Positions 1,671-56,560 of a stretch of DNA of 64,000 nucleotides are shown here, piece after piece. Source of the stretch: a phage. The notes beneath the pieces are model-generated. The model made no database searches, had not been told where the DNA came from, and worked only from the letters and a program-made list of their open reading frames with translations. Location of the stretch: the sequence record PX393109.1; one strand, given 5' to 3'. The translations under genes were made by a program, and so were the position numbers. Position 1 is the first letter of the stretch. Every line of letters begins with the position of its first letter.

Positions 1671-4432
1671 AAATGTTAATTGCTGCTGATATTCATATTC
1701 ATGAGTTTCAGCAACATAACTCGGAAGGGTTTCGGCTAAAGCAGTTTATCAGATTGGCTCATCGTATGGTGGAGATGGGTAAGGAACATAAAGTTACTTG
1801 CCTATCTATCGCTGGCGACTTGGTGCATAAGGCTCAGCACGAGCCTAAGATTGCACATGCTACTTCCCAGTTTATGGACATCCTCGGTGAGCAGTTCTCC
1901 GAGATTTACTACATTCTGGGTAACCACGACATTAACTCCAAATCGGTAGATGCTGATCACTATCAGAACTCGCTGGTGCCGATCCTGGCTGGTAAGGCGG
2001 AGTATGTCGATGGTAAGATCCTGAACTTAGGTGGCCGTAAGGTCGCCTTCAGCGACTGGCGTCCGACTCAGGACTTTAGCTTCATCCAGGATAAAGTAGA
2101 TGTCCTAATCGGCCATATTACCCTGTCCTCGATGTTCGGTCAGGAGTTCGACGATACTAAGTACGATCTGGGATTTGCGGGTGACATCCACCGTCCTATC
2201 AGCATCGGTCATACTCACTCGGTGAACGTGCCTATTCCTCATGGGATGGGTGATAGTCAGGAAGGCAGTCTGGTACTGCTGGATCTCAAAGATCTTTCCT
2301 GGCAGCGGGTTCCGGTAGAGTCTGATTCCTTTAAGTACTTAAAGATGTACTGGGAAGATGAGGTTCCTGTCGGATTGGACAATTACCCACATCTGGTAGT
2401 TCGTGAACGAGCTCAGATGATGGATGCTTCACGCATCTCGGTTAAGTCTATTGATGTCGAAGAAGTTATCGATAAAGTCGTTCGGGCTAAAGGTCTTAAA
2501 GATATCCATGATGAGATGTCTACCCACGTTGATCGTTCCGAGTCGGTATTCGACCTCAACTTTACCTTAAATAGCATTAAGGTAGAGAACTTCCGTAGCA
2601 TCGATAAGTTGGAGCTGGACTTTAAGAAAGGTCTGACTTATCTCTACGGCGAAACCGGTAATGGTAAATCCTCGCTGTTACGAGCTCTGAACTACTGCTT
2701 AACTGGTAGCGACAGTCCTCGTAACGTGGTGAGACTCGGTCAGGACCATCTTCTGGTAGAAGTGATGCTGGAGTATGGTGGTCGTGAATTCCTGATCAGT
2801 CGCCATTGGGCTGGTGGTCAGACGTTCCGAGTCTGGATTGATGGCGATGAGATGGATGGCGGAAGTATTCGTGAGCGTGAAGCTAAGCTCTGGGAGATGC
2901 TGCCATTCCTCGAACACTTCGATCTTCTGTACCGCTCCCAGAACAGTCCTCCGTTCCTTAGCCAGTTCGGATTCAACGAGCGTATCAACCTGATAACGAA
3001 GATGCTTGGTCTTACCGTAATTAACCAGTACGAAGCTGTCGCAAAGGCCTCGGCTAAGAACTGTAAGGTAGAGATCGGTAATCTCCAGACTCAGGTTACT
3101 GCTCAGGAAGAAGTCCTTAAGACGATGGAGGATCACGATTTCTCCAGACTCAAGGACGTAAGTGATCTGGAAGAGGCTAAATCCCGAATCCTTCCTCAGA
3201 TTGATGATATTCGTCAGAAGATCCGGGAGCTGGGTAATTTGGATAGTAAGCTACAGAGTCTTCAGATGTTGGAAGACTCGCTGGCTGCGTTCAATATAGA
3301 CTTTAGCGAAGAAGAGGTTAACTCCGCACTCGCTAATGTCCGTGGCGAAATTACTCTGCTAGATGCCGAAGTGTCGGAAGTAGAAGGGAATATTCGTTCG
3401 CTCCATAACCAGAGCGAATCTCTAACTAAGGAGTTGACTCGTCTGGAACAGGAGTTGACTAAGTTAGAGACAGAAATGCGGAATATTCCCACTACCTGTC
3501 CTACCTGTAAACAGTCTCTTAAGGAAGAGGACATTAAGCAGGTACAGAGCTCTATCAGAAGTAAGATGGATGAGCTCGAGACACAGGGATCTGTATCTGT
3601 GTCTAAGTTGGATGCTGTGGAAGCTGAGATAAGTAAGGCTCCTAAGTCTGATGAAATCCGACAGAAGCTGGCTCTTAAGAATAACGAATTAGTCGAACTC
3701 CGTCGTAAGTCCGGTCTGCTAAACGATGTGGCCACTCTTCGCCAGAAGATTCATACCGTCAATAGCGATGTGGAAGTGCTTAAGAATAAGACTAAGTCCT
3801 ATTCCTCCGTGCAAGTTCTGGAAGAGGAAGTCGCTAAGCTGGAACAAGAGCTTATCGAGATTAACTCCACTATCGGAGCTATGGCTACTCTTCGTAGTCT
3901 TAAGTCTCGTATGGACGATGCTCAGACGAAGCTGGATAAGGCTAACTCTGAGCTGGCTACTCTTCAGCCTAAGTATCAGAAGCTGGTGGAGTATCAGAAT
4001 CTGTTCACTAATAGCGGTGACGTAACTGCTTCTATCTTTAAGGAAGTGGCTGCGATGATGACTGGTGGTGATATGGTCATCTCTACCGTTCGTGAACAGG
4101 CTAATGGAAATATCAAGATTGACTTTGATGTTCAATACAAAGTCGGTGAGTTCCTGATTCCGTATTCTGATCTCTCTGGTGGTCAGCAGAACCTGGTGGA
4201 CGTACTGTTCATCGGTAAGCTGATTAGCCTTAGTAAAGGTGCTGGATGCCTGATTCTGGATGAGTCGTTGAAGAATCTGGATGTGAATACTCTGGACATA
4301 GCTATCGATGCTCTCCAGGACATTCCGGTTAATCACATCATCCTGGTTACTCATGTACCTACGTTCCAGAGATATAATACTAAAATCGGTGCCTACCTTT
4401 CCAATAACGTAACTACGTTTATGGAAGAGTAG
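1667..4432 (+). CDS. fused SbcD(Mre11)-like nuclease / SbcC(Rad50)-like ATPase
   Basis: N-term calcineurin-like phosphoesterase motifs (ADIHIHE, GDLVH, GNHD); then Walker A GETGNGKSS, coiled-coil region with CPTC zinc-hook-like motif, signature LSGGQQ and Walker B LILDE at C-term. Confidence 0.75.
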   Translation: MKMLIAADIHIHEFQQHNSEGFRLKQFIRLAHRMVEMGKEHKVTCLSIAGDLVHKAQHEPKIAHATSQFMDILGEQFSEIYYILGNHDINSKSVDADHYQNSLVPILAGKAEYVDGKILNLGGRKVAFSDWRPTQDFSFIQDKVDVLIGHITLSSMFGQEFDDTKYDLGFAGDIHRPISIGHTHSVNVPIPHGMGDSQEGSLVLLDLKDLSWQRVPVESDSFKYLKMYWEDEVPVGLDNYPHLVVRERAQMMDASRISVKSIDVEEVIDKVVRAKGLKDIHDEMSTHVDRSESVFDLNFTLNSIKVENFRSIDKLELDFKKGLTYLYGETGNGKSSLLRALNYCLTGSDSPRNVVRLGQDHLLVEVMLEYGGREFLISRHWAGGQTFRVWIDGDEMDGGSIREREAKLWEMLPFLEHFDLLYRSQNSPPFLSQFGFNERINLITKMLGLTVINQYEAVAKASAKNCKVEIGNLQTQVTAQEEVLKTMEDHDFSRLKDVSDLEEAKSRILPQIDDIRQKIRELGNLDSKLQSLQMLEDSLAAFNIDFSEEEVNSALANVRGEITLLDAEVSEVEGNIRSLHNQSESLTKELTRLEQELTKLETEMRNIPTTCPTCKQSLKEEDIKQVQSSIRSKMDELETQGSVSVSKLDAVEAEISKAPKSDEIRQKLALKNNELVELRRKSGLLNDVATLRQKIHTVNSDVEVLKNKTKSYSSVQVLEEEVAKLEQELIEINSTIGAMATLRSLKSRMDDAQTKLDKANSELATLQPKYQKLVEYQNLFTNSGDVTASIFKEVAAMMTGGDMVISTVREQANGNIKIDFDVQYKVGEFLIPYSDLSGGQQNLVDVLFIGKLISLSKGAGCLILDESLKNLDVNTLDIAIDALQDIPVNHIILVTHVPTFQRYNTKIGAYLSNNVTTFMEE

Positions 4433-5141: not shown

Positions 5142-7127
5142 ATGTCAGAACATGCTATTGAAATCACAAGATTGCGTTACCCTGATAACGTTCGTCAGAA
5201 CGTGTCGATGTATCTGGGCGACCCGATTAACTACACTCATCCTCTCCAGGAAATAATCAATAACGCGGAGGATGAGCTGCTTAATGGTCATGCCAACCTG
5301 GTGCAGATCATTAACCGTGAATCCTATAAATTGGTTACCGACAACGGTCGCGGCATTCCTATCTACGCTGATCCGGAAGATCCGACTAAGTCAATCCTGT
5401 TCTCTACTGTAACAGATCTTCACGCAGGTTCCAAGCTGGGTGATAACCGCGAAATCACTTCCGGTACTCACGGTGTAGGTAGCTCTGCTGTTAACGCAGT
5501 GTCTGAGCGCTTTATCGTGATTCGCCGTGTTATGCAGGGTGATAAGGCACACATCCCTATGGAGCCTGGTCAGTTCTACGTGCTTGGCTTCCGTCGTGGT
5601 ATCATGCAGATTGATGCCGTAATCAATGATCTGAACGATCTTCACGATGACGGTATTCCGGATGAAGTGCTGGAGACCTTAAAGGCTACTGACTTCTCTA
5701 CAGCAGTCTTCCTGGTTCCTGATGCTACTCTGTACCGCAGCATCTGGTCTGATGTGGACACGGTTCCTCTGAAGATCTCCCTGATTGGTCGAGATGCCAC
5801 TATCACCGTAAATGGTGAAGCTCTGGCTACCTGGGACTTCCGTGCGGATGTTGCCGAAAATGAGAAGCTGTTCCTGGACTCTACTGTTAAGTATGAGTTC
5901 TCGTTCAACGATCGTCTGACATTCTCCGGAGAGCTGGGCTATTCTGATAAGAATATGTCTTACTCCCACGTGGACATGATCAACTTGATCAATAACCCGC
6001 ATGGTGGTCTGCATGAGAAATTGGTCACGAGAGCGCTCGGCGGCATGCTGAATAAAATCAACTCGGCCATCACTGTTGGTGATGCTAAGCTGGGTCTGAT
6101 CGTGTTCACTAACGTCTTCTCCAGCTACCGTACTGCATTCTCCTCCCAGACTAAGGAGAAGCTGACTGGTCTCGGTATGTCCTGGAGCGACTGGGAAATC
6201 TATGCCAAGAATCAGCTGATGCTGGATGATGAGCAGATCAATGATTACGACTATTATGGCGAGTACTTCTTCTATGAGAAAGAATGCCTTAGTCAGCTCA
6301 CATTCTACTTCAGCCTGGTTTATGAGCAGAATAAGCAGTTCTTCGATGCTCTGATTGCCAAGATCCTGGCTTACAAAGCCAGCCTGAATAAACTCTCCAA
6401 CATGGACTTCATTAAATCCAAGCTGGTGATGGGTGACGATCATCGTAAGGCCGCTATGGACGGAGACATGGCGAAGATCTACGAATCTCCGTCTGACCGC
6501 TGGGATCTTCGTGAACTGTTCATCACAGAGGGTCCGTCTGCTTCGGGTAACATCATCAAACTGCGTAACGAGTATCAGTCGGTGCTTCCGCTCCGTGGTA
6601 AGATGCGTAACTCGGCTTCCATGGATATTATGGAGTTCGTGAATAACCCAGAACTGCTGGCGATCATTAACACTATCGGCTGCGGCATGGGTTCTATGTT
6701 CGACCTGGATAAAGCACGCTACGGTAAGGTCATCATTATGACTGACCTGGATGTGGATGGTCAGCACATCAGTAATCTCATCAGTTCAATCTTCCTCATC
6801 CATGCTCCTGAGCTGGTTAAGGATGGTCGTCTGTATAAACTCGAAGCTCCGTTCTATGTGGTCAAGAACGGTAAGAAGACCGAGTTCTACTACGCCGATG
6901 AGAAGGATAAGATCGACTTCGATAAGTCCTATGTCGAACGTCGTAAGGGTCTCGGTTCCTACACAGAGGAAGAGACTGAGCAGTTCATCGTGAATGCGAA
7001 GACTCGCCGTCTTATCCAGGTCACCTACGATGATAACGAAGAGCATCTCGATGCCGCTCGTAAATTGTTGTACTCATCTCGTGCTCGTCGCCAACTGTTA
7101 GAAGACTACGGTCTGTTTAAGGAGTAA
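5142..7127 (+). CDS. type II DNA topoisomerase large subunit (GyrB-like ATPase + Toprim; T4 gp39-like)
   Basis: GHKL ATPase boxes (NNAEDE, DNGRGIP, GTHGVGSS) and Toprim LRGK...YGKVIIMTDLDVDGQHI. Start moved to ATG 5142 (track start 5109 is GTG). Confidence 0.8.
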   Translation: MSEHAIEITRLRYPDNVRQNVSMYLGDPINYTHPLQEIINNAEDELLNGHANLVQIINRESYKLVTDNGRGIPIYADPEDPTKSILFSTVTDLHAGSKLGDNREITSGTHGVGSSAVNAVSERFIVIRRVMQGDKAHIPMEPGQFYVLGFRRGIMQIDAVINDLNDLHDDGIPDEVLETLKATDFSTAVFLVPDATLYRSIWSDVDTVPLKISLIGRDATITVNGEALATWDFRADVAENEKLFLDSTVKYEFSFNDRLTFSGELGYSDKNMSYSHVDMINLINNPHGGLHEKLVTRALGGMLNKINSAITVGDAKLGLIVFTNVFSSYRTAFSSQTKEKLTGLGMSWSDWEIYAKNQLMLDDEQINDYDYYGEYFFYEKECLSQLTFYFSLVYEQNKQFFDALIAKILAYKASLNKLSNMDFIKSKLVMGDDHRKAAMDGDMAKIYESPSDRWDLRELFITEGPSASGNIIKLRNEYQSVLPLRGKMRNSASMDIMEFVNNPELLAIINTIGCGMGSMFDLDKARYGKVIIMTDLDVDGQHISNLISSIFLIHAPELVKDGRLYKLEAPFYVVKNGKKTEFYYADEKDKIDFDKSYVERRKGLGSYTEEETEQFIVNAKTRRLIQVTYDDNEEHLDAARKLLYSSRARRQLLEDYGLFKE

Positions 7128-7129
7128 TT

Positions 7130-8377
7130 ATGGAACAGGTAAAGATTTCTGAATTCATCACCAAGAACTACACTGACTACAGTGTGTACTGTGCTCTTCA
7201 TCGTGTAGTTCCTGGTATCGATGGCCTGATTCCTGCTCAGCGTCGTATCTACATGGCGCTGAATAGCATTGCTCGCGGGAAGCTGGTTGGGACTCTGAGT
7301 GCTATCTCCGAGACTCAGTCGCTCCACCCATTCGGCGACCAGTCTATCGATGGAACTATCTCTCGTCTGGCTCGTATCGGAGCTATTGATGGTCAGGGTT
7401 CCTTCGGTGTGAAACTGTTGGAAGAAGTACCTGGTGCGGCTCCTCGTTACACGAAGGTTGGCCTGAACGAAGATCGTGCAGAGTACTACTTCGGCTTAGC
7501 GGACTATGTTCCGCAGGTGGAAGGTGAAGAGAAGATGGAATATGCGTACCTTCCGGTGCCGATTCCGTATGCTCTGATGTACGGTACCTTCTCATGGGCT
7601 ACGGGGATTCAGTCTCGTATTCCAGCGTTCACCTATGAGTCACTGCTGGATGCTTATGAGCATGATGACTACAATCTGCTTAAGGCTCAGTACGGTTACG
7701 ATATCGTGCCTGCTAAGTCTGACCTTAAGCAGCTGTGGGAAACTGGTGTAGGTCGCCTCGGTCTTAGCCTTAAGGTGACTCGTGTCAATACCGATACCAT
7801 CGACATCATCGGGTCTGGTGAGGTGATTACTCCTCGCATCGGCTTCCTGAATAAGTGGCTGTCCGAAGGTAAGATCCTGGTCAAGAACATGTCCAAGGAT
7901 AAGATCTATATCCGAGTAATGAAGGCTCCACGTATCAGAACCATCGATATGGACGAGGTTCACGAAGCATGCATGAATATTGCTTACATGAACCGCTCGC
8001 ATCGTATCCAGGTAGCTTATAATGGCCAATTGGTGACGATGGGTATTCGCGACTGGATTGCAGTCACGATGGCTCTCTACAATCAGGCATTCTCCGTCCA
8101 TAAGACTGAGTCGCTTAAGAAGATTGACCGAGACATCGAGATTTACCAGATTCTTCCTAAAGTGGGCGAGCTGGTTATGCAGGATAAGTCTGATGCTCAG
8201 ATCATCAAAGCTCTCGGTATTACCCAGGAAGTGTTGAATTCCTGCCTTAGCCGTAGCATTAGCATGTTGCGTAAGAAAGATCACGACGACCGCATTGCTA
8301 ATCTGCAAGAGCGTCGTGCTAAGGTAGAGAATCAGACTTCTGATGAGATGATTCAGAAGATGATCGGTAAACTGTAA
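7130..8377 (+). CDS. type II DNA topoisomerase DNA-cleavage subunit (GyrA N-terminal-like; T4 gp52-like)
   Basis: IPAQRRIYMAL and active-site-Tyr region AAPRYTKV resemble GyrA/ParC breakage-reunion domain. Confidence 0.75.
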   Translation: MEQVKISEFITKNYTDYSVYCALHRVVPGIDGLIPAQRRIYMALNSIARGKLVGTLSAISETQSLHPFGDQSIDGTISRLARIGAIDGQGSFGVKLLEEVPGAAPRYTKVGLNEDRAEYYFGLADYVPQVEGEEKMEYAYLPVPIPYALMYGTFSWATGIQSRIPAFTYESLLDAYEHDDYNLLKAQYGYDIVPAKSDLKQLWETGVGRLGLSLKVTRVNTDTIDIIGSGEVITPRIGFLNKWLSEGKILVKNMSKDKIYIRVMKAPRIRTIDMDEVHEACMNIAYMNRSHRIQVAYNGQLVTMGIRDWIAVTMALYNQAFSVHKTESLKKIDRDIEIYQILPKVGELVMQDKSDAQIIKALGITQEVLNSCLSRSISMLRKKDHDDRIANLQERRAKVENQTSDEMIQKMIGKL

Positions 8378-16267: not shown

Positions 16268-17337
16268 TCTCGGTAATTCGCGGTAACAGTAATACTGAAA
16301 TCCTGGTTAACAGCATCAATACTATGGATAAGGCTGGTGAGTTGCAGAAGTCCAGAACTTCTGTTAACTCTTCGGCGGTAGTATCCATCGGTCATGCTGT
16401 AGTTGAGTTAAGTAATCCGATTAATCGTTGGATGGCTCATCCAGAACGTAAAGACAATATCCTCGGAATTATGGGGGAAGTATTGTGGGTACTGTCTGGT
16501 GGCTATGCAATCGATAACTGGATGTCGATTATGGTTCCTCGCGCTAAGATGTTTAGCGATGATATGGTTACCTGGCGTGGTGCTTACGGTGAGCGTCTGT
16601 ATAACTACGATCAACTCCAGACTGTAACAGACCGCCTCCGTTCTGACCTGGGTAACCGTAAGTGCGTGGCTACTATTCACGATCCCAGCCGTGATTCTGA
16701 TGTAGGTCTGGTAAACAGCATTGGCAGCATCAATACCGCAGATATGATCTGCAACATTGCTCTATCGTTTAAGTACCGTAATGGTGGTCTGGACTGCACG
16801 GTATTCAACCGTAGTAATGATCTAATCTGGGGATTGACTAACGTTAATCTGGTGGAGTTCACGATCATCCAGGAAATCATCGCAACTATGCTCAAAGTAG
16901 ATATGGGCAACTATGTGGTGATGACGGATGATCTCCACTGGTATCCGGAAGTGTCGAACATCAAGAAGCAGGTAAGTAATATCCGAGCTTATGTTGACGA
17001 CATTAATGAAGCTCCGGTAACTACGATTGATCTCGGATCACTTAATTCCTGGTATAAGATCCGTACCTACTTCCAGCATTACATCGCTACTCTTGAAGAT
17101 GCTGCTTCTCGTTATAATAGCGATCACAGTATTCTAGAATACGTAATGGAAGATGTTGGTCGAGAGTTCCAACCAGGATCAACTCTGGATGTGATGATGT
17201 GGTTAGCAGGCGCTCATTATCTATGTAAGACTACTGGAGCTCACATGTCTATCCAGTGCGAGCATCTGGTTAATTCACCATTCGTGAAATGGGTCGCGAA
17301 CCGCCTCGGGGATAAGTCTCCGTTTATTCTGGAATAA
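16264..17337 (+). CDS. thymidylate synthase / deoxypyrimidylate hydroxymethylase superfamily enzyme (ThyA-gp42 fold)
   Basis: Colinear ThyA-family motifs: EVLWVLSGG, WRGAYGERLY, DQLQ..RKCVATIHDP, catalytic-Cys region MICNIAL, NRSNDLIWGL, DDLHWY. The RSND and C-x-N features resemble T4 dCMP hydroxymethylase more than canonical ThyA. Confidence 0.7.
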   Translation: MISVIRGNSNTEILVNSINTMDKAGELQKSRTSVNSSAVVSIGHAVVELSNPINRWMAHPERKDNILGIMGEVLWVLSGGYAIDNWMSIMVPRAKMFSDDMVTWRGAYGERLYNYDQLQTVTDRLRSDLGNRKCVATIHDPSRDSDVGLVNSIGSINTADMICNIALSFKYRNGGLDCTVFNRSNDLIWGLTNVNLVEFTIIQEIIATMLKVDMGNYVVMTDDLHWYPEVSNIKKQVSNIRAYVDDINEAPVTTIDLGSLNSWYKIRTYFQHYIATLEDAASRYNSDHSILEYVMEDVGREFQPGSTLDVMMWLAGAHYLCKTTGAHMSIQCEHLVNSPFVKWVANRLGDKSPFILE

Positions 17338-17373
17338 CCGCTCTTTTTAGGGCTCGAAAGGCTGTTAAGGTGT
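17338..17373 (+). promoter_or_regulatory. class A conserved promoter-like motif, copy 7
   Basis: CCGCTCTTTTTAGGGCTCGAAAGGCTGTTAAGGTGT. Confidence 0.6.
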
Positions 17374-17420
17374 GGGAGGCAACTTCCATACCTTTATTTT
17401 TGTAACTTAGGAGAAATTAC

Positions 17421-18020
17421 ATGAAAGATCTTTTTAAGGTACCAGTGTGTACCAATAACGTGAATCGTTTCGCAGGTAAGCAAGTACTGTCTCATCGCTC
17501 TACTATCTCGGAGCATAGCTTCGAAGTTACTTACTACTCTACTCTGATTGTTCAGAAACTGGTGATGGATGGATTTTTAACTGCTGAGCAGGGTCTGGAA
17601 GTAAATCAGTACTCGTTGGTTCACGACATTCCAGAGATCTTTACAGGTGATGTCCCCTACACTGCTAAGGCTCGCTTCCCAGAGTTAAAAGAGACTCTGA
17701 ATAAAGTTGAGCAGGAAATCTGGGAAGAGGTACTTCCTACTTTCCGCACTCCTGCATCTGCCGAAGCTAAGTTCATCTGTAAAGTTGCAGATGCTATTGC
17801 GGTATCTCGTGAGATCATGACTGAGTTCAGCATGGGTAACATCTTCTTTGGCGAAAGCGAGCTGGAGAACTGCCGCAACATCTTCAGTACCTGCTTCAAT
17901 AAGTACAAAGACGAAGTGAGTGATGATGTATGGATGGGTACTCTCCAGTCTCTTCTCCATATGGCACATGGTAGTTCAATAGAGCACCTGGTTAAAGAGA
18001 CTATTGGCAATGCAGATTAA
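17421..18020 (+). CDS. HD-domain phosphohydrolase (YfbR-like 5'-deoxynucleotidase)
   Basis: HSFEV...VHDIPEIFTGDVP...KVADAIAV matches H...HD...D metal-binding pattern of YfbR-type HD nucleotidases. Confidence 0.65.
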   Translation: MKDLFKVPVCTNNVNRFAGKQVLSHRSTISEHSFEVTYYSTLIVQKLVMDGFLTAEQGLEVNQYSLVHDIPEIFTGDVPYTAKARFPELKETLNKVEQEIWEEVLPTFRTPASAEAKFICKVADAIAVSREIMTEFSMGNIFFGESELENCRNIFSTCFNKYKDEVSDDVWMGTLQSLLHMAHGSSIEHLVKETIGNAD

Positions 18021-18330
18021 TATTCCTGAAACTGTTTACGTTGAGAGCTCGTTCGCTCGGACAATTGGTGCTGACGATCAGCACAGTAGTCGTATTGCTC
18101 CAATGAAGCTGCGTAAGAGTGGCTACATTGTTGGAGCTGGCTCATCGGTAGAGTTTCCGGTAGATAGTACGGTAACTGTCGACTCTATCTCTAATCTTTC
18201 TGTATCTTACCTGGGCTTAACTGCTCAGGTATTCTCTACAGACGAAGGTAAGTGGATTCGTCTGACTAACTCTAACAAGAACCATGCAGTACGCATCCAT
18301 GCGGGTCAGAGTTTAGTCTATGGAAATTGA
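18010..18330 (+). CDS. hypothetical protein (106 aa)
   Basis: ORF overlapping 3' end of HD gene; no domain recognised. Confidence 0.4.
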   Translation: MQINIPETVYVESSFARTIGADDQHSSRIAPMKLRKSGYIVGAGSSVEFPVDSTVTVDSISNLSVSYLGLTAQVFSTDEGKWIRLTNSNKNHAVRIHAGQSLVYGN

Positions 18331-19312
18331 GTCTCTAACTCGTATAAATGAATACTTGGTTAGGGTTACTCCCAGAGTTTACATGTTCGAAGCAGATAAG
18401 TATCCTGGTAATGTCCAGATAGCTAACGAACATAAGGGGGAGGAGCTCCGACTGTGTCCCACCTGTGAACTTATGGGGGAACCGAACTCTAAGTGGACAT
18501 TTTACTGGAACTACAATAAGCAGACTGGAATATGCCATCGTTGCCATTGTAAGTTCATACCTTTCTCGAATAAGAGTAAGGAAGAGTTAGAATTAGAGCT
18601 AACTATCCGTGGGTGGATAGCTCATTCTGATAAGCAGGTAGTCCGGAGTTTATCTTCGGTGCCAGAGATTCAGTATGAGAGGATGTTTGATCCTCCTTCT
18701 GATTTCTGTAAAGAGTATTTGGCTAACCGCAACCCGCTCCTACAGGGTATGGAAGATTATTTCCAGATCCGCGAACTTAAGGGAGTAGGTGTGGCAGCTC
18801 CGATGTATTTTAAGGGTAAGATCATATCTTATACGATGCGTCTGTACGAGCCGATAGGTAAAAGGAAATACCATATTCCTCCTGGGGATAAGTATATCTA
18901 TAGTCCGAATCGTGCTCTGAAGACTAGTCTATACGGAGGTATGACTAAGTTCAGCTTATGCGAGGGTATGTTTGATGCTTTCGCAATGTTGCTGTTAGGC
19001 TACGATAACCCATTAGCTGTCCAGGGATCTTTCCTCACCGATACCCAGGCCAGGATGATGAGTCAGTTCTTCCCGGAAGAAGGTCAGATATTTCTTGACA
19101 GTACGGATTTATCTTTTGAACTGCGCAATAGCGTAAGACAGAAGGTGAAGAGTATTCGTCAACTGCGAGTAGTCTACAGCGATGGTGAGGATCCTGAGGA
19201 ATTACTAATACGGAAACTGCAGAATGGTACTGATGAGTTCATCCAGTCCGTATTAGACAGAAGAGAGAACTTAATATGCAATATGATGTCGAAGGAATCC
19301 TCGATAGCGTAG
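18320..19312 (+). CDS. DNA primase (zinc-ribbon + Toprim, DnaG-like)
   Basis: CPTC...CHRCHC zinc-binding motif followed by Toprim-like CEGMFDA and DSTD acidic motifs. Confidence 0.6.
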   Translation: MEIESLTRINEYLVRVTPRVYMFEADKYPGNVQIANEHKGEELRLCPTCELMGEPNSKWTFYWNYNKQTGICHRCHCKFIPFSNKSKEELELELTIRGWIAHSDKQVVRSLSSVPEIQYERMFDPPSDFCKEYLANRNPLLQGMEDYFQIRELKGVGVAAPMYFKGKIISYTMRLYEPIGKRKYHIPPGDKYIYSPNRALKTSLYGGMTKFSLCEGMFDAFAMLLLGYDNPLAVQGSFLTDTQARMMSQFFPEEGQIFLDSTDLSFELRNSVRQKVKSIRQLRVVYSDGEDPEELLIRKLQNGTDEFIQSVLDRRENLICNMMSKESSIA

Positions 19313-20913
19313 TGGAGGAGACGTTCCCGGACTTTAGCTATCGAGCTAATCAGCGCGAAACTATCATCAAGATTCTGGATGCGTTCATTAATAAGAATAA
19401 GAAGACGGTGCTGCTGAATGCTCCTACCGGTGCTGGTAAATCGTGGATCTCTCGAATCGTAGCCGAAGTAATTAATCAGCTGTTCGAGACCGATTCTCTA
19501 TTCATTACCAAGACGATTGCTCTCCAGCAGCAGTATCTTCGCGACTTTAAGGATATGAAGCAGTTGATGGGTGCTACGAACTATAGCTGCCACACAGACC
19601 TGACTCTGCCCATTCCTCCGAAGAAGAAACATCACCCTACCTGTCGCTATCGTAAGACGGACGGGTGCTGTGAGTATGCGGCAGCTCGTAATGCGTGGAA
19701 AGATTCACCACTTAAGAACCTTAACTATGCATTCTTCTTTACTGCGGATGGTAAGTACACTGCAGAAGGACTGCTGGTGGCGGACGAAGCCCATACTCTG
19801 CCAGGATCTCTTATTGATCGCTCCGAAGTTACTATCAACATCAGTCGTCTTATGGACCTAACTCCAGAATTCGACATGGGGGATTACATTCCGGTTGCTG
19901 AGATTCAGAGGACTAAGCACTTCAAGATCAACTACATCTTCGACCTGCTACCATATCTTACCCAGGCTAAATCTGTTCTATACGCTCAGATTCGTGATCT
20001 GGAGAAGGCTATCGAGAAGTTCGATGCTATCGGTAACAAGGCTCAGGTAGAGTCGCTGATCGCGAGTAAACTGGGACCTCTGGAATCTCGAGCTAGCCTG
20101 GCTTCAGAGACCGTGTCCGGGATTAATACAATCATCGCTACGGATCCAGATCAGTGGGTACTGTACGAAGATACTGGTGAGCGAGATCTGATGTTTAAGT
20201 TCAAGCCACTGGAAGTACTGGACTCTTCAGCTAGCTTGATTATGCATCCAGAGTATCGTCTGCTGATGACTGCTACTCCGTTTAATCTTATCTATGATCT
20301 GAAACTGAGCATGGATGATACGGAAGTAATCACTACTGATTATGCATGGCCTCTGGAGAATCGTCCGTTTATTGTGGAACGTTCTCTTCCTAGCATGAAC
20401 TTCAAGACTAAGGCGGATGTGTTCCCGGAATATGTAGAAGCTCTGGATAACTTCCTGGAGGGACTGGGAGATGACACTGCTTGCGGACTGGTTCACTCTG
20501 CATCGTATGCTAATGCTGAGGAGATCAAGAAGTTAAGTAAGTATGCCGACCGTATGTACATTCCCACCTCTAGGGAAGTGCGAGACATCACTAAGCTGAT
20601 GACTCCTGGTCGCATTATCGTGTCTCCGTCTATTCTGGAGGGCGTGGACTTACATGGCGATCTTGCCAGATTCCAGGTATTCTTCAAGATCTCCTATCCT
20701 AACCTGGGTGATCTCTGGGTAGAGCGCAAGAAAGTGCGTGATCCGGAGTGGTATAATATCCAGCCTATGATAGCCATCATCCAGGGTAGTGGTCGTGCTG
20801 TACGTAGCCATGACGATTTCGCAGTAACCTACATGATGGACCCATCCTTCCAGAGACTGCTGGATAACCTTAAGGGACAAGTGCCCGAGTGGTTCCTACA
20901 GACCCTCATCTAA
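19276..20913 (+). CDS. SF2 DEAH-box helicase (DinG/Rad3-like)
   Basis: Walker A LLNAPTGAGKS, DEAH box LVADEAHTLP, C-terminal EGVDLHG and QGSGRAVR motifs. Confidence 0.7.
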   Translation: MQYDVEGILDSVVEETFPDFSYRANQRETIIKILDAFINKNKKTVLLNAPTGAGKSWISRIVAEVINQLFETDSLFITKTIALQQQYLRDFKDMKQLMGATNYSCHTDLTLPIPPKKKHHPTCRYRKTDGCCEYAAARNAWKDSPLKNLNYAFFFTADGKYTAEGLLVADEAHTLPGSLIDRSEVTINISRLMDLTPEFDMGDYIPVAEIQRTKHFKINYIFDLLPYLTQAKSVLYAQIRDLEKAIEKFDAIGNKAQVESLIASKLGPLESRASLASETVSGINTIIATDPDQWVLYEDTGERDLMFKFKPLEVLDSSASLIMHPEYRLLMTATPFNLIYDLKLSMDDTEVITTDYAWPLENRPFIVERSLPSMNFKTKADVFPEYVEALDNFLEGLGDDTACGLVHSASYANAEEIKKLSKYADRMYIPTSREVRDITKLMTPGRIIVSPSILEGVDLHGDLARFQVFFKISYPNLGDLWVERKKVRDPEWYNIQPMIAIIQGSGRAVRSHDDFAVTYMMDPSFQRLLDNLKGQVPEWFLQTLI

Positions 20914-51668: not shown

Positions 51669-51704
51669 CCGCTCTTTTGTACGGTCAAAAGGCTGTTAAA
51701 CTGT
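51669..51704 (+). promoter_or_regulatory. class A conserved promoter-like motif, copy 13
   Basis: CCGCTCTTTTGTACGGTCAAAAGGCTGTTAAACTGT; followed by 5' UTR hairpin ATAGAGCA..TGCTCTAT. Confidence 0.6.
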
Positions 51705-51778: not shown

Positions 51779-52138
51779 ATGTTTGAGAAATTAAAATCTA
51801 TATTTAAAACTGTTCCAGCAATTCCCTTACTGACTAAATCGGAAGAGCGACTAGCTTATGAGAATATGATCCGTACTGGGGACCCTACCGAATTTATCAG
51901 AATGTTGGATAATGACGAAATCCGGATGATTCGTAAAGATACATGGACTTGGGTAAGCGCTAATGGTGTAATCCATGTCTATAACGATATTTACGGTCCG
52001 GAAGTTAAGCTGGGAGGAGTAAGTGCGTTAATTGACTGTAATGGTGATGCTTACGGTCTATCTTACGAAGATGGTAAGAGAGTATATAACGCAATCTGGG
52101 ACTCCTGCGACCGCTCCAGGAGGATGGCTCATGTTTAA
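51779..52138 (+). CDS. hypothetical protein (119 aa)
   Basis: ATG after duplicated TTAGGAGATATTAGGAGATATTAAGAT. Confidence 0.45.
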   Translation: MFEKLKSIFKTVPAIPLLTKSEERLAYENMIRTGDPTEFIRMLDNDEIRMIRKDTWTWVSANGVIHVYNDIYGPEVKLGGVSALIDCNGDAYGLSYEDGKRVYNAIWDSCDRSRRMAHV

Positions 52139-52301
52139 GTTACTTATTATAAGTAGTATTGTTGCTCGGGATGCTCCATCAGTTCACTCGGTAATTGCGG
52201 AATTTGAGACTAAAGATCAAGCAGATCGTGCCTACGACAAAATGGTGGAATCTGCCAACCCTCAGTCCTGGGTATCTAACAAAGTAGTGAAACTTTACTA
52301 A
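52131..52301 (+). CDS. hypothetical protein (56 aa)
   Basis: ATG after GGAGGATGGCTC; overlapping upstream gene end. Confidence 0.35.
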   Translation: MFKLLIISSIVARDAPSVHSVIAEFETKDQADRAYDKMVESANPQSWVSNKVVKLY

Positions 52302-52830
52302 TAGCTGAGTTCTATTAAGGCACCTAACGGCCTAATAGTTGCTCTTCCGTAAAACAGATTCGATAGTCTGGGAAGAGCAGCTATATACTCTCATTAAGTA
52401 ATGCGTATACATAGGGCACGATTAAGTTACGTCTCCGGCTATGGTTGCATTACGAATAGTTAGGTAGTGTCCCTATTCAGATTGTCCGGAACTGGATAGA
52501 GGATGAAGGTATTGTCGAGACCTTAGTGGGGACTGATGCGAACTACACTAAGGTTTATACCCTCTCAACATTCTTAGGGGCATCTACGTAGTATACCTTG
52601 CGTCACGCGTAGGGTGAGCGAGTTAAAGCCCAAAGTGGCTTTAGGGAGCGAATCCCAGGGGGAGGCTCGGGTGGGCAAGGTCAGAGTCTCCGGAGGAGCT
52701 TAGTCTCGTGTACGCGGCGGCTCTGCCAGCCGCCGCTACACTCCAATTGGTTAAATTAGATAAGGGGCCGGTAGTTCCTACGTCCATTAGTTTAGGAGTT
52801 ATTATTTGATTATGTTGAGGAACACTATTA
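52302..52830. other. 529-bp non-coding region with multiple GC-rich hairpins (candidate structured RNA or cis-acting element)
   Basis: No convincing ORF/RBS on either strand; hairpins GCTCTTCC..GGAAGAGC (52341-52378), AAAGCC..GGCTTT (52626-52643), GCGGCGGCT..AGCCGCCGC (52714-52736); lacks class A/B motifs. Confidence 0.4.
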
Positions 52831-53064
52831 ATGATCGTAGTTACTGAAGAGTATATTACCTCCCAGTCTAAGGCTGGTGGGAAGGCTGTTGGAAGAGTAG
52901 CAATAGCTAAACTAACCAATATGGGTTATGTTCCTAAGGACACTCCTAAGCCACCAGCACCATGGATATGGGAAAAGGAGAATGGCAGGATTATGGCTAT
53001 TACCCAGTATATGGGGCCATTCAGACTCAAGATCGAATACTTAGTAGATCTGGAAGATTCGTAG
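52831..53064 (+). CDS. hypothetical protein (77 aa)
   Basis: ORF. Confidence 0.4.
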   Translation: MIVVTEEYITSQSKAGGKAVGRVAIAKLTNMGYVPKDTPKPPAPWIWEKENGRIMAITQYMGPFRLKIEYLVDLEDS

Positions 53065-53065
53065 G

Positions 53066-53101
53066 CCGCTCTTTTTAGGTGCTGAAAGGCTGTTAAGGTG
53101 T
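53066..53101 (+). promoter_or_regulatory. class A conserved promoter-like motif, copy 14
   Basis: CCGCTCTTTTTAGGTGCTGAAAGGCTGTTAAGGTGT. Confidence 0.6.
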
Positions 53102-53672: not shown

Positions 53673-53927
53673 ATGTACTTTACTGATAATATGATCGTAG
53701 GACTGATGATTGCTTATGTCATCGGTGGGATCATCGTTTATCCGATTGCTGCTTATGTTACTGGCAGATTCCGTATTAAGCATGGTGGCTACACAGTATT
53801 GGCTACGGTATTTTGGCCGTTAATCCCTTTCGTGATCGTGGCAGTTATCATAACTAAACTGGCCGAAATAGCTTGCACGAAAGGGTTCCACTACCTCCGC
53901 GATCTCGGTGAGAAACATGCCAATTAA
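53673..53927 (+). CDS. membrane protein (84 aa, 2 TM)
   Basis: Hydrophobic segments IVGLMIAYVIGGIIVYPIAAYV and LATVFWPLIPFVIVAVII. Confidence 0.45.
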   Translation: MYFTDNMIVGLMIAYVIGGIIVYPIAAYVTGRFRIKHGGYTVLATVFWPLIPFVIVAVIITKLAEIACTKGFHYLRDLGEKHAN

Positions 53928-54486
53928 TTTCAGTATGCAGAGTCTTGAAGACTTTGTACCAGAGCATGGTAAGAGCGTAGTAGTCTTCTACCACGAGCGA
54001 TTCTATTCCCGAGTAGAAATGCTACAGATGCAAGTAGAGTTCCACTACCAGATGATAGATGGCGATGGCTGCCCAGTTCCTCAGTGGGCATGCTATGATA
54101 ATCGTGACGACATACCGTTCGATAAGCCATTCATCTGGAAAGATAAGCAGGTTAAGTTCCTTACTCTGGACGACTGTATGGAAATACATAATCGTCATCC
54201 CAAGCACCACTATCGTTACTGGTGGGTTAAGGACTGGTTCCTAACTGGCGGAGGAAATAGCCAGTTAAATAGGGAACAGCTGGCGGAGATGTCGTTAGGG
54301 ATTATGAGTGCCGAACAGTTTAGTGCTGAGCTGGATAAGGGATGTGCTGATCTGGAAGCCAAGCGTATCTTACGTGAATTAACTCGTGAATCCCGTACTG
54401 GATATTGTGAGAAGCATGGCACTCGTCAGCTGGGTAAGGACCTATGTGATGTGTGCCGTATTGAACGTGCATTTATGGAGGGATGA
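53917..54486 (+). CDS. hypothetical protein with Cys-rich C-terminus (189 aa)
   Basis: ATG 53917 (track start is GTG); C-terminal CEKHG...CDVC. Confidence 0.4.
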   Translation: MPINFSMQSLEDFVPEHGKSVVVFYHERFYSRVEMLQMQVEFHYQMIDGDGCPVPQWACYDNRDDIPFDKPFIWKDKQVKFLTLDDCMEIHNRHPKHHYRYWWVKDWFLTGGGNSQLNREQLAEMSLGIMSAEQFSAELDKGCADLEAKRILRELTRESRTGYCEKHGTRQLGKDLCDVCRIERAFMEG

Positions 54487-55142
54487 TGCGGATCTGGACC
54501 GACAAGAACTCTATTCTGGAGTTTATCGGAGAGTACCGATTCCTATCTAACTTTTATCCTGTTCCTATTGAGGATAAGAATCCTTACGGGAACGAGACTC
54601 TTCCCTCCCTTACTTACCCTAGTGTGGAGCATGCCTATCAAGCATCTAAGTCTCCATCACTAGCCCATCGTCTTATCATAGCTAGACTTCATACTCCTGG
54701 TGAGGCCAAGAGATATGGACGTAAGCTGCCCATTACTGAATCGTGGAAGGAACAGAGAGTAGATGTGATGGAACACCTACTCCGGATTAAATTCGCGAAA
54801 GGTGGGGAGCTAGCTCAAAAATTGACCGATACTTGGCCTAAGGAGCTGGTCGAAGGAAATACCCACGGAGATTCCTTCTGGGGTATGACTCGTGAGGAGT
54901 ACAAGTCCGTCCTCACTGGTATTAATATGCTCGGACGATTACTGATGAAACTTCGGGAGGAGTTAGTTATGGAACAAATGACCAAGGAGACAGGATCGTT
55001 TGCGGAGTGGCATAAACTGCTGCACCAATACGCTCAGTCTCGTGGCGGTAGCGCTGCTGATGCGGAAGCCTGGCGGGATGATTACGATGAAGGTAAGACC
55101 CCTAAGCAGGCCTACGACGATGAGTGGGGCGAAGAAGACTAA
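54483..55142 (+). CDS. NADAR/YbiA-family protein (DUF1768; N-glycosidase / ADP-ribose-processing fold)
   Basis: FLSNFYPVPI...YPSVEHAYQASKS...GEAKRYGRKLP..SWKEQRVDVMEHLLRIKF...HGDSFWG colinear with E. coli YbiA as I recall it. Confidence 0.7.
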   Translation: MMRIWTDKNSILEFIGEYRFLSNFYPVPIEDKNPYGNETLPSLTYPSVEHAYQASKSPSLAHRLIIARLHTPGEAKRYGRKLPITESWKEQRVDVMEHLLRIKFAKGGELAQKLTDTWPKELVEGNTHGDSFWGMTREEYKSVLTGINMLGRLLMKLREELVMEQMTKETGSFAEWHKLLHQYAQSRGGSAADAEAWRDDYDEGKTPKQAYDDEWGEED

Positions 55143-55846: not shown

Positions 55847-56560
55847 ATGTCTACTAAGATGATGCCACACCATCTGGCTCCGAATAAACTGTTTAACCGA
55901 TTCCTGTCATATCACGACTCCTACCACTGCGCAATTGACATCGAGACCGAGTATCTCGATTTTAAAGAGCCTGGGGTAGTTCTATCTGTAGGTATGGTGA
56001 CGGTTGGTCCTGATCACTACTCCCACGTCTACTTCACTATTGATCGAGAAGAGTCGCTGGCTCTGGGTATGAAGTCTGACCCTAACGTAGTTGAATGGCT
56101 CAACACTCTCCCGAAACCCGTCCGTGATGCTGCATATGCTAATCCAGTATCTGTTGACGAAGCTCTGGATATCATCGAAGAGTACGTAGCTAAGGTACTA
56201 CAGGATCCTGGTTGCCAGATGTTGAACTTCATCGGTAACGCACCAGAGTTCGACCAGGGATTCCTGGATTGGTACTTTAAGGCTAAAGGACGTAAGACCC
56301 CGTTCCTACACTGGATGAATCGAGATTACCGCACTCTGGCTAGTCTGCAGCTGATCTCATTCGATGATCGTCGCATGATTAAAGAAGAACTGAGTAGCCA
56401 GCACGAGTCTATGTCTGATCACCATGCATTGTTCGATGCGATGCTGGAAGCTAAGACTTGGGTTCGCACCATCAATCGTGTAAAAGAGTTACAGGATCTG
56501 GAGCACGAGGTGAATACCATGATTGCTATGCAGGGTAACTCTGTGGAAGATGGAGAGTAA
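55847..56560 (+). CDS. DEDDh 3'-5' exonuclease (DnaQ/RNase T-like)
   Basis: Exo I CAIDIETEY, and C-terminal H...D motif HHALFDAMLEA. Confidence 0.65.
   Translation: MSTKMMPHHLAPNKLFNRFLSYHDSYHCAIDIETEYLDFKEPGVVLSVGMVTVGPDHYSHVYFTIDREESLALGMKSDPNVVEWLNTLPKPVRDAAYANPVSVDEALDIIEEYVAKVLQDPGCQMLNFIGNAPEFDQGFLDWYFKAKGRKTPFLHWMNRDYRTLASLQLISFDDRRMIKEELSSQHESMSDHHALFDAMLEAKTWVRTINRVKELQDLEHEVNTMIAMQGNSVEDGE

Follow-up and report, generated by a model that had tools for sequence, protein, structure and literature searches.

Large, intricately folded non-coding RNAs (ncRNAs) are rare, and most of those with a known function are ribozymes or the cores of molecular machines. Among the phage-borne ones, GOLLD and ROOL typically adjoin phage tRNA genes; their function is still unknown, and their hosts are hard to handle. 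These two 'ornate large' RNAs of phages and prophages, and also OLE, are Rfam families that have been studied by cryo-electron microscopy (PMC12286853). Here we describe a region of comparable character in a stretch of phage DNA of 64,000 nucleotides (sequence record PX393109.1), the whole of which is called the window below. The region fills most of a 529-bp gap between two small genes, orf56 and orf77, and on balance we favour the view that this gap is the gene for a structured ncRNA of ~480 nt, belonging to an undescribed family, that is co-transcribed with its neighbours, trimmed and trans-acting.

Genes on the + strand of the window are densely packed up to ~60.5 kb. The gap (52302-52830) lies among them, between the orf56 stop codon TAA (52299-52301) and the orf77 start codon ATG (52831), and on a crude map of open reading frames (ORFs) it is by far the largest non-coding stretch of the window, the runners-up measuring 273, 233 and 201 nt. 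A first-pass annotation of this DNA had called 52302-52830 the only long intergenic stretch, and its coordinates were exact, with the next gap at 273 nt. The gap carries no annotation in either of the two GenBank relatives, the Escherichia phages EP_H11 and vB_EcoM_IME392 (IME392). The element and the genes on either side of it are as follows.

52302-52783, + strand: conserved non-coding structured RNA region, ~480 nt, from the orf56 stop codon to the last conserved hairpin; both ends are putative.
52131-52301, + strand: orf56, a hypothetical protein of 56 amino acids, directly upstream of the RNA in every copy recovered.
52831-53064, + strand: orf77, the downstream gene of 77 amino acids, which occurs independently of the RNA.

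Seven homologous copies in three lineages were recovered, six of them full-length and one (L028) partial. Those in IME392 and EP_H11 came from DNA searches, and the five others were reached by querying a large protein collection with the flanking ORFs and then looking up the contigs. The comparison alignment comprises eight sequences, effectively three lineages, one recombinant. The copies beyond the two GenBank phages are:

L006: ENA NODE_11, 112,979 bp.
L029 and L028: close relatives, the latter from Logan SRR24079945.
L005 and L027: diverged Logan contigs, the latter being ERR15695956_769, region 2648-3873.

Comparison of these copies shows that the region does not encode protein and that purifying selection acts on it. 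The copies share no conserved reading frame, and neither GenBank relative has an ORF annotated at the gap; the longest stop-free stretch, of 48-68 codons, changes frame from one lineage to another, and several 1-nt indels interrupt the alignment. The hidden protein-coding gene that the first-pass annotation had allowed for thus finds no conserved frame. Between the window and L005 the element differs by 27%, compared with 54% and 50% at the third codon positions of orf56 and orf77, respectively, so that it is about twice as conserved as the third codon positions of its flanking genes. As third codon positions diverge by 50%, very recent ancestry is excluded as the source of this conservation. 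The conserved sequence includes invariant blocks of 14-22 nt (AGGCACCTAACGGCC, GCACGATTAAGTTACGTC, AGTTAGGTAGTGTCCCTAT, TAGAGGATGAAGGTATTGTCGA and TTATACCCTCTCAA), and the gap has no residual similarity to a tRNA or a protein. A non-functional stretch, whether a decayed gene or tRNA cluster or a hitch-hiking spacer, is therefore scarcely credible: such an origin would fit the weak homologues of orf56 in the T5 tRNA cluster and the low-coding region with two tRNAs in the distant relative Ab1-TPeters, but it does not account for conservation twice that of third codon positions, for compensatory changes that preserve helix pairing, or for the lack of any tRNA or protein remnant.

The + strand of the region very likely carries a functional RNA structure. 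The pattern of substitutions in the alignment shows a predicted fold with some 15 helices or more, maintained by compensatory changes. In the eight-sequence alignment, a structure of 17 helices and 114 pairs has 96.3% of its cells paired, and 24 of the pairs have changed on both sides, compared with 9.8±2.4 in shuffled alignments (0 of 500 reach 24) and 3-4 when the partners are slid. Compensatory double changes are found in H2, H6, H7, H8 and the tip of H10, among other helices listed below. G·U cells number 58 and A·C cells 5, several substitutions being of the type G·U to A-U or U·G to C-G; it is therefore the + strand RNA, the strand of the flanking genes, that folds. Folding of the window sequence by itself had already predicted five helices (H1, H2, H6, H8 and H11), which recur in an independent fold of L005. 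The minimum free energy of the + strand is -185 kcal/mol (z = -3.8), with z = -3.1 for the - strand of the gap; what stands beyond chance is the conservation and covariation of the region, not its richness in hairpins. The proposal of a candidate structured RNA in the first-pass annotation is thus borne out by the non-coding status, the purifying selection and the + strand-specific compensatory pair changes, and the covariation check with related phages that it had called for, with 24 pairs changed on both sides, supports a structure. The hairpins that it had named are likewise present: GCTCTTCC (52341) with GGAAGAGC (52371), within the 14-bp helix H1; the inner CAGATT/AGTCTG at 52355-52370; and GCGGCGGCT (52714) with AGCCGCCGC (52728). 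The predicted parts, from 5' to 3', are:

52318-52333, + strand: H0, a 5' hairpin AGGC/GCCT with an invariant loop, in the invariant block AGGCACCTAACGGCC.
52335-52384, + strand: H1, a 14-bp helix (52335-52348 / 52371-52384) enclosing H1b (52355-52360 / 52365-52370).
52398-52453, + strand: H2 domain, with a helix at 52398-52403 / 52448-52453 and an inner CAUAG/CUAUG at 52410-14 / 52439-43.
52458-52504, + strand: J2/3 and H3, with the invariant AGUUAGGUAGUGUCCCUAU and a 12-bp hairpin GUCCCUAUUCAG / CUGGAUAG-A-GGAU that has a variable 11-nt loop.
52497-52518, + strand: the longest block without variation, UAGAGGAUGAAGGUAUUGUCGA (22 nt), shared unchanged by all eight sequences.
52508-52579, + strand: H5, GGUAU/AUACC (52508-12 / 52557-61), with H6 and H6b; H5 and H6b are invariant.
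52518-52528 / 52546-52556 and 52562-65 / 52576-79, + strand: the 11-bp helix H6 and the small hairpin H6b, respectively.
52595-52681, + strand: H7 multi-branch domain, with closing helix ACCUUGC/GCAAGGU (52595-52601 / 52675-52681), including H8 and smaller helices.
52683-52706, + strand: H10, with tip CUCC-GGA-GGAG (52688-91 / 52695-98); a C-G pair of the tip becomes A-U in L005 and L027.
52708-52741, + strand: H11, a terminal G+C-rich hairpin GCGGCGGCT/AGCCGCCGC, found in all lineages with a differing stem sequence.
52762-52783, + strand: 3' conserved tail with the small hairpin AAGGGGCCGGUAGUUCCUACGU, kept between lineages as a shifted hairpin of 4-5 bp.

The H0 loop ACCUAAC (52322-52328) and the invariant GUUAGGU (52459-52465) show perfect complementarity over 7 nt and form a possible pseudoknot; with both blocks invariant, this pairing lies beyond covariation testing. 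In H1, 11 of the 14 pairs have changed on both sides with pairing kept, and the versions GCUCUUCC/GGAAGAGC, UAUUUACC/GGUAAGUA and AACCUACC/GGUGGGU all pair. H2 is 100% paired and has two pairs with changes on both sides and, besides these, one A-U that became G·U, and its domain includes an invariant 18-nt segment, GCACGAUUAAGUUACGUC, at 52416-52433. In L005 and L027, a putative CCGG:CCGG pairing that would join the internal loop of H2 to the loop of H3 has changed to CCGA:UCGG, which counts as a single event. The pairs of H3 (strands 52469-52480 / 52492-52504) are mostly invariant, with one U·G changed to C-G and one pair broken in L005 and L027; the UCCCUA of this region has alternative candidate partners at 52642-52647 and, in the first alifold model, at 52574-52582. 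H6, also 100% paired, has four pairs with changes on both sides and, besides these, one G·U to A-U change. The RNA varies most in the 5' part of the H7 domain. The closing helix of this domain goes from CC/GG to GG/CC in L005 and L027, and H8 (52623-30 / 52637-44) has an A-U to G-C change in L006. The outer part of H10 (52683-87 / 52702-06) is without support in L005 and L027. H11 is followed by UACACUCCAAUUGG, with no U-tract, and the 3' conserved tail belongs either to the RNA or to the leader of the next gene.

Two further observations concern individual copies. At ~1966-1995 of L028 (corresponding to 52595-52622 of the window) the 5' strand of H7 and the segment that follows it are swapped for other sequence (GGGTTAGTCGCTAGCGGAGCAG...); this copy is otherwise near-identical, and its contig stops before the 3' partner of H7. 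The loop of H11 (52723-52727) is inverted between relatives, reading CTGCC in the window and GGCAG in EP_H11 (L001), and TCCGAG in L005 and CTTGGA in L027, which looks like a hairpin-mediated flip at the DNA level in both lineages.

That loop, a perfect palindrome flipping by inversion in two lineages, is among the features that would suit an element acting as DNA: a replication origin, a packaging site or a recombination hotspot, its hairpins forming in DNA. The gap is also the longest non-coding stretch of the window, and recombination breakpoints flank the element in L027. We nevertheless consider such an element extremely unlikely, given the strand-specific G·U pairing (58 cells against 5) and the covariation across 17 helices. 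The gap holds no iterons, tandem repeats or direct repeats, nor the 30-40-nt repeats by which a type III toxin-antitoxin or anti-CRISPR element would be recognised. It has no AT-rich segment, its G+C content (0.42-0.58) being above the local mean, and the cumulative GC skew is monotonic, with no inflection. The origin or packaging site that the first-pass annotation had offered as alternatives thus lacks iterons, an AT-rich segment and a skew inflection, and the strand-specific pairing favours RNA.

The element lies directly 3' of orf56 in all copies. Its downstream neighbour is orf77 in most of them, is frameshifted in L006 and is replaced in L027 by an unrelated ORF of 62 amino acids. L027 is a mosaic, in which orf56 is 97% identical to that of the window and orf119, the gene upstream of orf56, is L005-like (95%), while the RNA is 92% identical to that of L005 and only 72% to that of the window. 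The recombination breakpoints of L027 lie at the borders of the RNA. From this mosaicism it follows that the element behaves as a module of its own, and the copies together show an RNA that travels with a fixed upstream orf56 and a changing downstream neighbour. L006 keeps the RNA, with its compensatory change in H8, despite the frameshift. In that contig the orf77 homologue (~7055-7290) loses its frame after 22 codons through a 1-nt deletion, with the RNA upstream intact, which may reflect a genuine pseudogene or a fault in the assembly. The orf77 homologues of Seuratvirus-like phages (and of further contigs, P0005-P0010) are standalone, without a long upstream gap, and a Pseudomonas phage with an orf119 homologue likewise lacks a gap there.

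The window contains 16 copies of a 17-nt motif, AAAGGCTGTTAARGTGT, every one of them on the + strand, where 0.27 would be expected. The copies inspected are intergenic, lie upstream of a gene and are preceded by CCGCTCTTTT, and a near-identical AAAAGCTGTTTAAAGTGT is present in Acinetobacter phage Ab1-TPeters (L032, ~19.5 kb). We take the motif to be the probable promoter for the multisubunit RNA polymerase (RNAP) that the phage itself encodes. Its positions are:

5094, 8444, 9285, 11626, 13365, 15501, 17357, 20941, 24542, 34826, 40583, 46619, 51688, 53085, 55804 and 56879, + strand: sites of AAAGGCTGTTAARGTGT.
51670-51704, + strand: upstream motif copy CCGCTCTTTT...AAAGGCTGTTAAACTGT, putative phage-RNAP promoter for orf119-orf56-RNA-orf77.
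53066-53101, + strand: next motif copy, at the start of the following transcription unit.

The copies at 51688 and 53085 bracket orf119-orf56-RNA-orf77 and none lies within it, in agreement with the earlier remark that the repeated intergenic motif is lacking in the gap. No intrinsic terminator was called on the + strand between 51500 and 53500, H11 having no U-tract after it. Since there is neither a motif inside the unit nor a called intrinsic terminator, the RNA most likely arises by read-through followed by processing. With an RNA polymerase encoded by the phage itself, a sigma-70 promoter scan is of little use here.

This arrangement, inside a transcription unit and without a promoter-like motif or terminator of its own, would also suit a cis-acting element of the polycistronic mRNA that serves processing, stability, antitermination or translation control of the flanking genes, such as a processing platform for RNase III or RNase E, an RNA that modifies RNAP as HK022 put does, or a leader serving the downstream gene. 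The element abuts the orf56 stop codon, its conserved 3' tail reaches to ~10-45 nt from the next ribosome-binding site, and the junction AUAUACUCUCAUUAA in the window is complementary to the start region of orf77. We regard a cis role as rather unlikely, since the complementarity to the orf77 start is kept in neither L005 nor L027, orf77 homologues in other phages have no leader, and the RNA is retained where the downstream gene has been replaced (L027) or frameshifted (L006), so that it has no constant association with that gene. A length of ~480 nt, with many helices and invariant blocks of 22 nt, is in addition far above what known elements of this kind need.

Searches for relatives point to an RNA that very probably represents a new family. 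No Rfam 15 family matched at gathering threshold anywhere in the window, in answer to the scan that the first-pass annotation had proposed; at E<=10 only snoRNA noise outside the element appeared, and L005 and L027 gave nothing at E<=1. These negatives exclude, as recognisable relatives, group I and group II introns, small ribozymes, RNase P, tmRNA, 6S RNA and riboswitches, and equally GOLLD, ROOL, OLE, HEARO, raiA and all other families. ARAGORN found no tRNA or tmRNA gene in the window, in line with the tRNA T-loop reported as missing from the gap, and no tRNA or tmRNA model matched at E<=10. In blastn searches of E. coli genomes, plasmids and phages, only IME392 and EP_H11 matched, and the flanking proteins orf119 and orf77 had no match in IMG/VR and JGI metagenomes. 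Covariance models of the central (R1) and 3' (R2) domains revealed no second copy in the window and nothing in the first 100 kb of the 110-kb Ab1-TPeters genome or in the loci obtained from Pseudomonas phage QdP_Psa3, T5 and Merlin; the 85 loci retrieved by a loose pattern gave no covariance-model match. Judged from the collections searched, family members occur only in a small clade of E. coli phages, and no account of the RNA turned up in searches of the literature.

Some apparent matches were set aside. Scans for exact blocks of the DNA in IMG/VR, JGI metagenomes and GTDB genomes returned only chance matches in coding sequence (the peptide EDEGIVE in loci L009-L017, as well as L008 and L034 onwards), none of which was confirmed by nhmmer or a covariance model. 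A likeness to a stretch of Ab1-TPeters that was seen by eye is likewise chance, its local alignment being no better than shuffles, with no match to R2.

The search results also bear on a self-cleaving or self-splicing RNA or an intron remnant, a reading for which the large size, the many helices and the long invariant unpaired segments, all typical of catalytic RNAs, could be invoked, together with the short strings that the first-pass annotation had quoted as loosely resembling group I intron elements of P/Q/R type. The strings themselves (TCTGGGAAGA at 52367, GAATCCCAGG at 52650 and GTCAGAGTCTCC at 52680) are indeed present, but the resemblance did not hold up, no Rfam intron model having matched. 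A ribozyme is in our view highly improbable: no group I, group II or small-ribozyme model matched even at E<=10, and neither a P3/P7-type pseudoknot nor a G-binding site was recognised. The flanking ORFs are complete genes that are found separately elsewhere, which leaves splicing no exons to join. The suggested intron remnant lacks support on the same grounds, the flanking ORFs being complete and independent, with orf77 standing alone elsewhere and replaced in L027.

The RNA resembles the phage 'ornate large RNAs' in kind, and none of the known-family criteria that were tested assigns it to a family. Like GOLLD and ROOL it is phage-borne, longer than 400 nt and multi-helical, with long and highly conserved unpaired segments and no known biochemical function. 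The adjacency to tRNA genes seen with those two has only a weak counterpart here, in the weak homologues of orf56 within the T5 tRNA cluster; there are no adjacent tRNAs. Unlike GOLLD, ROOL and OLE, the element matches no model, and its host is a lytic myophage of a Gram-negative bacterium (E. coli) with hypermodified DNA. Phage group I introns (RF00028) share with it the size range, the several helices, the occurrence in phage genomes and the short P/Q/R-like strings; in contrast to them, the element has no model match, is not inserted in a gene and has no identified core pseudoknot.

Other phage and plasmid RNAs offer partial parallels. The stable RNAs of the T4 tRNA cluster (species 1 and 2, rnaC/rnaD) are ~120-140 nt long, are processed from a polycistronic transcript and have an unknown function. 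The present RNA is likewise phage-encoded and situated among small early ORFs, and by analogy it may be similarly stable and processed; unlike them, it is three to four times larger and shows no similarity in the phage collection beyond IME392 and EP_H11. RNA II of ColE1 is a replication primer RNA of ~500 nt whose fold matters for its function at a DNA locus. The two are similar in length and both are folded, but here no plasmid similarity and no antisense partner or origin features were seen. The packaging RNA (pRNA) of phi29, ~120-174 nt long, is an Rfam family limited to phi29-like podophages and is part of a protein machine. It too is a structured RNA encoded by a phage, but as an Rfam family it has no match to the gap.

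The window derives from a T-hypermodified E. coli myophage whose lytic relatives EP_H11 and IME392 have already been isolated. Over a 1.7-kb segment around and including the gap it is 98.8% identical to IME392 and 96.4% identical to EP_H11, phages of 111-116 kb that are grouped with the RP13/YerA41-like hypermodified-thymidine phages (PMC12686479; bioRxiv 10.1101/2025.03.26.645540). Its gene content includes split multisubunit RNAP beta/beta'-like subunits, a DNA polymerase, a topoisomerase II, an SbcC-like protein and an NAD-dependent ligase. The nearest relatives of the RNAP genes, at only 35-37% identity, are in Ralstonia phage RP13 and Acinetobacter phage Ab1-TPeters.

28502-30016 and 31596-33164: split RNAP beta/beta'-like genes, from PHROG matches.

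Closer to the RNA, orf56 matches phrog_7747 and phrog_15108; it has no sequence match in the PDB, and a single-sequence AlphaFold model (pLDDT 60) was too poor for use. More than 100 T5-like phages have a weak homologue of orf56 within their tRNA gene cluster (in the T5 cluster the similarity is marginal, at E ~0.3 and 32% identity), and T4-like and Vi1-like phages carry weak homologues as well, there among small early ORFs; the loci with weak homologues include L030 (phage T5_ev212, 2001-2168) and L031 (phage Merlin, 1989-2180). Some 1.7-3 kb downstream of the RNA are genes for a NADAR-domain protein (54483-55142) and an Rv2179c-like 3'-5' exoribonuclease (55847-56560), which suggests an accessory or counter-defence neighbourhood. 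In Ab1-TPeters (L032), a stretch of ~3.3 kb (16850-20170) is annotated only with tiny hypothetical proteins of 30-66 amino acids. It contains two unannotated tRNA genes, tRNA-Arg(UCU) at 18399-18475 and tRNA-Met at 18862-18936, the latter overlapping a coding sequence on the opposite strand, and the remainder may hold further RNA genes; this stretch has no detectable homology to the RNA studied here.

We suggest that rightward read-through from the promoter-like motif at ~51.69 kb would produce the RNA as part of orf119-orf56-RNA-orf77, and that trimming by host RNases would then yield a stable RNA, its 3' side shielded by the G+C-rich H11. The operon would be early or middle, and the RNA would act in trans in the early phase of host takeover. 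Its invariant single-stranded and loop segments might provide a binding surface for a protein or another RNA, as a scaffold or decoy, or might alternatively form a catalytic or tertiary core. A trans role is argued for by the independence of the RNA from the downstream gene, by a size and complexity that exceed the needs of known processing or antitermination elements, and by its position among small accessory ORFs, near the NADAR-domain and Rv2179c-like exoribonuclease genes. Taking these together, we would give a trans-acting stable RNA, rather than a cis element, about an even chance. It is conceivable, though unlikely, that this RNA founds a new class of large RNAs with an active role, be it a ribozyme, a self-assembling RNA-only particle like those of ROOL and GOLLD or an RNA decoy that counters a host defence.

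Several points weigh against this account of a trans-acting structured RNA. A neighbouring and mostly coding segment 1.5 kb downstream (53791-54270) has z = -4.0, so that hairpin richness alone is not exceptional in this genome; with coding segments reaching equal values, the folding-energy z-score was dropped as a discriminator. The covariation statistics ignore kinship, the sequences amounting to effectively three lineages, with most of the double changes stemming from a single split. The invariant GUCCCUA has three alternative partners, which makes the fold of the central and 3' domains ambiguous. Transcription, processing and the ends of the RNA are inferences. The analyses made gave no sign of a partner, a target or catalytic activity; reverse complements of the invariant blocks match the window 21 times against ~12 expected, and by eye none of the matches has flanks resembling a target site. 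Lastly, as only a very small clade of phages has this family, the RNA could have a lineage-specific cis role.

The finding flags an unannotated gene in two GenBank genomes and brings an RNA into the picture for the RP13/YerA41-like T-hypermodified phages, whose biology is poorly known. If the larger proposal is true, the class would be specific to E. coli phages with hypermodified thymidine and a multisubunit RNAP of their own, and it would provide the first 'ornate' large RNA in a genetically tractable coliphage/E. coli system. As the RNA is present in isolated lytic E. coli phages, EP_H11 and IME392, the function of such RNAs becomes directly testable.

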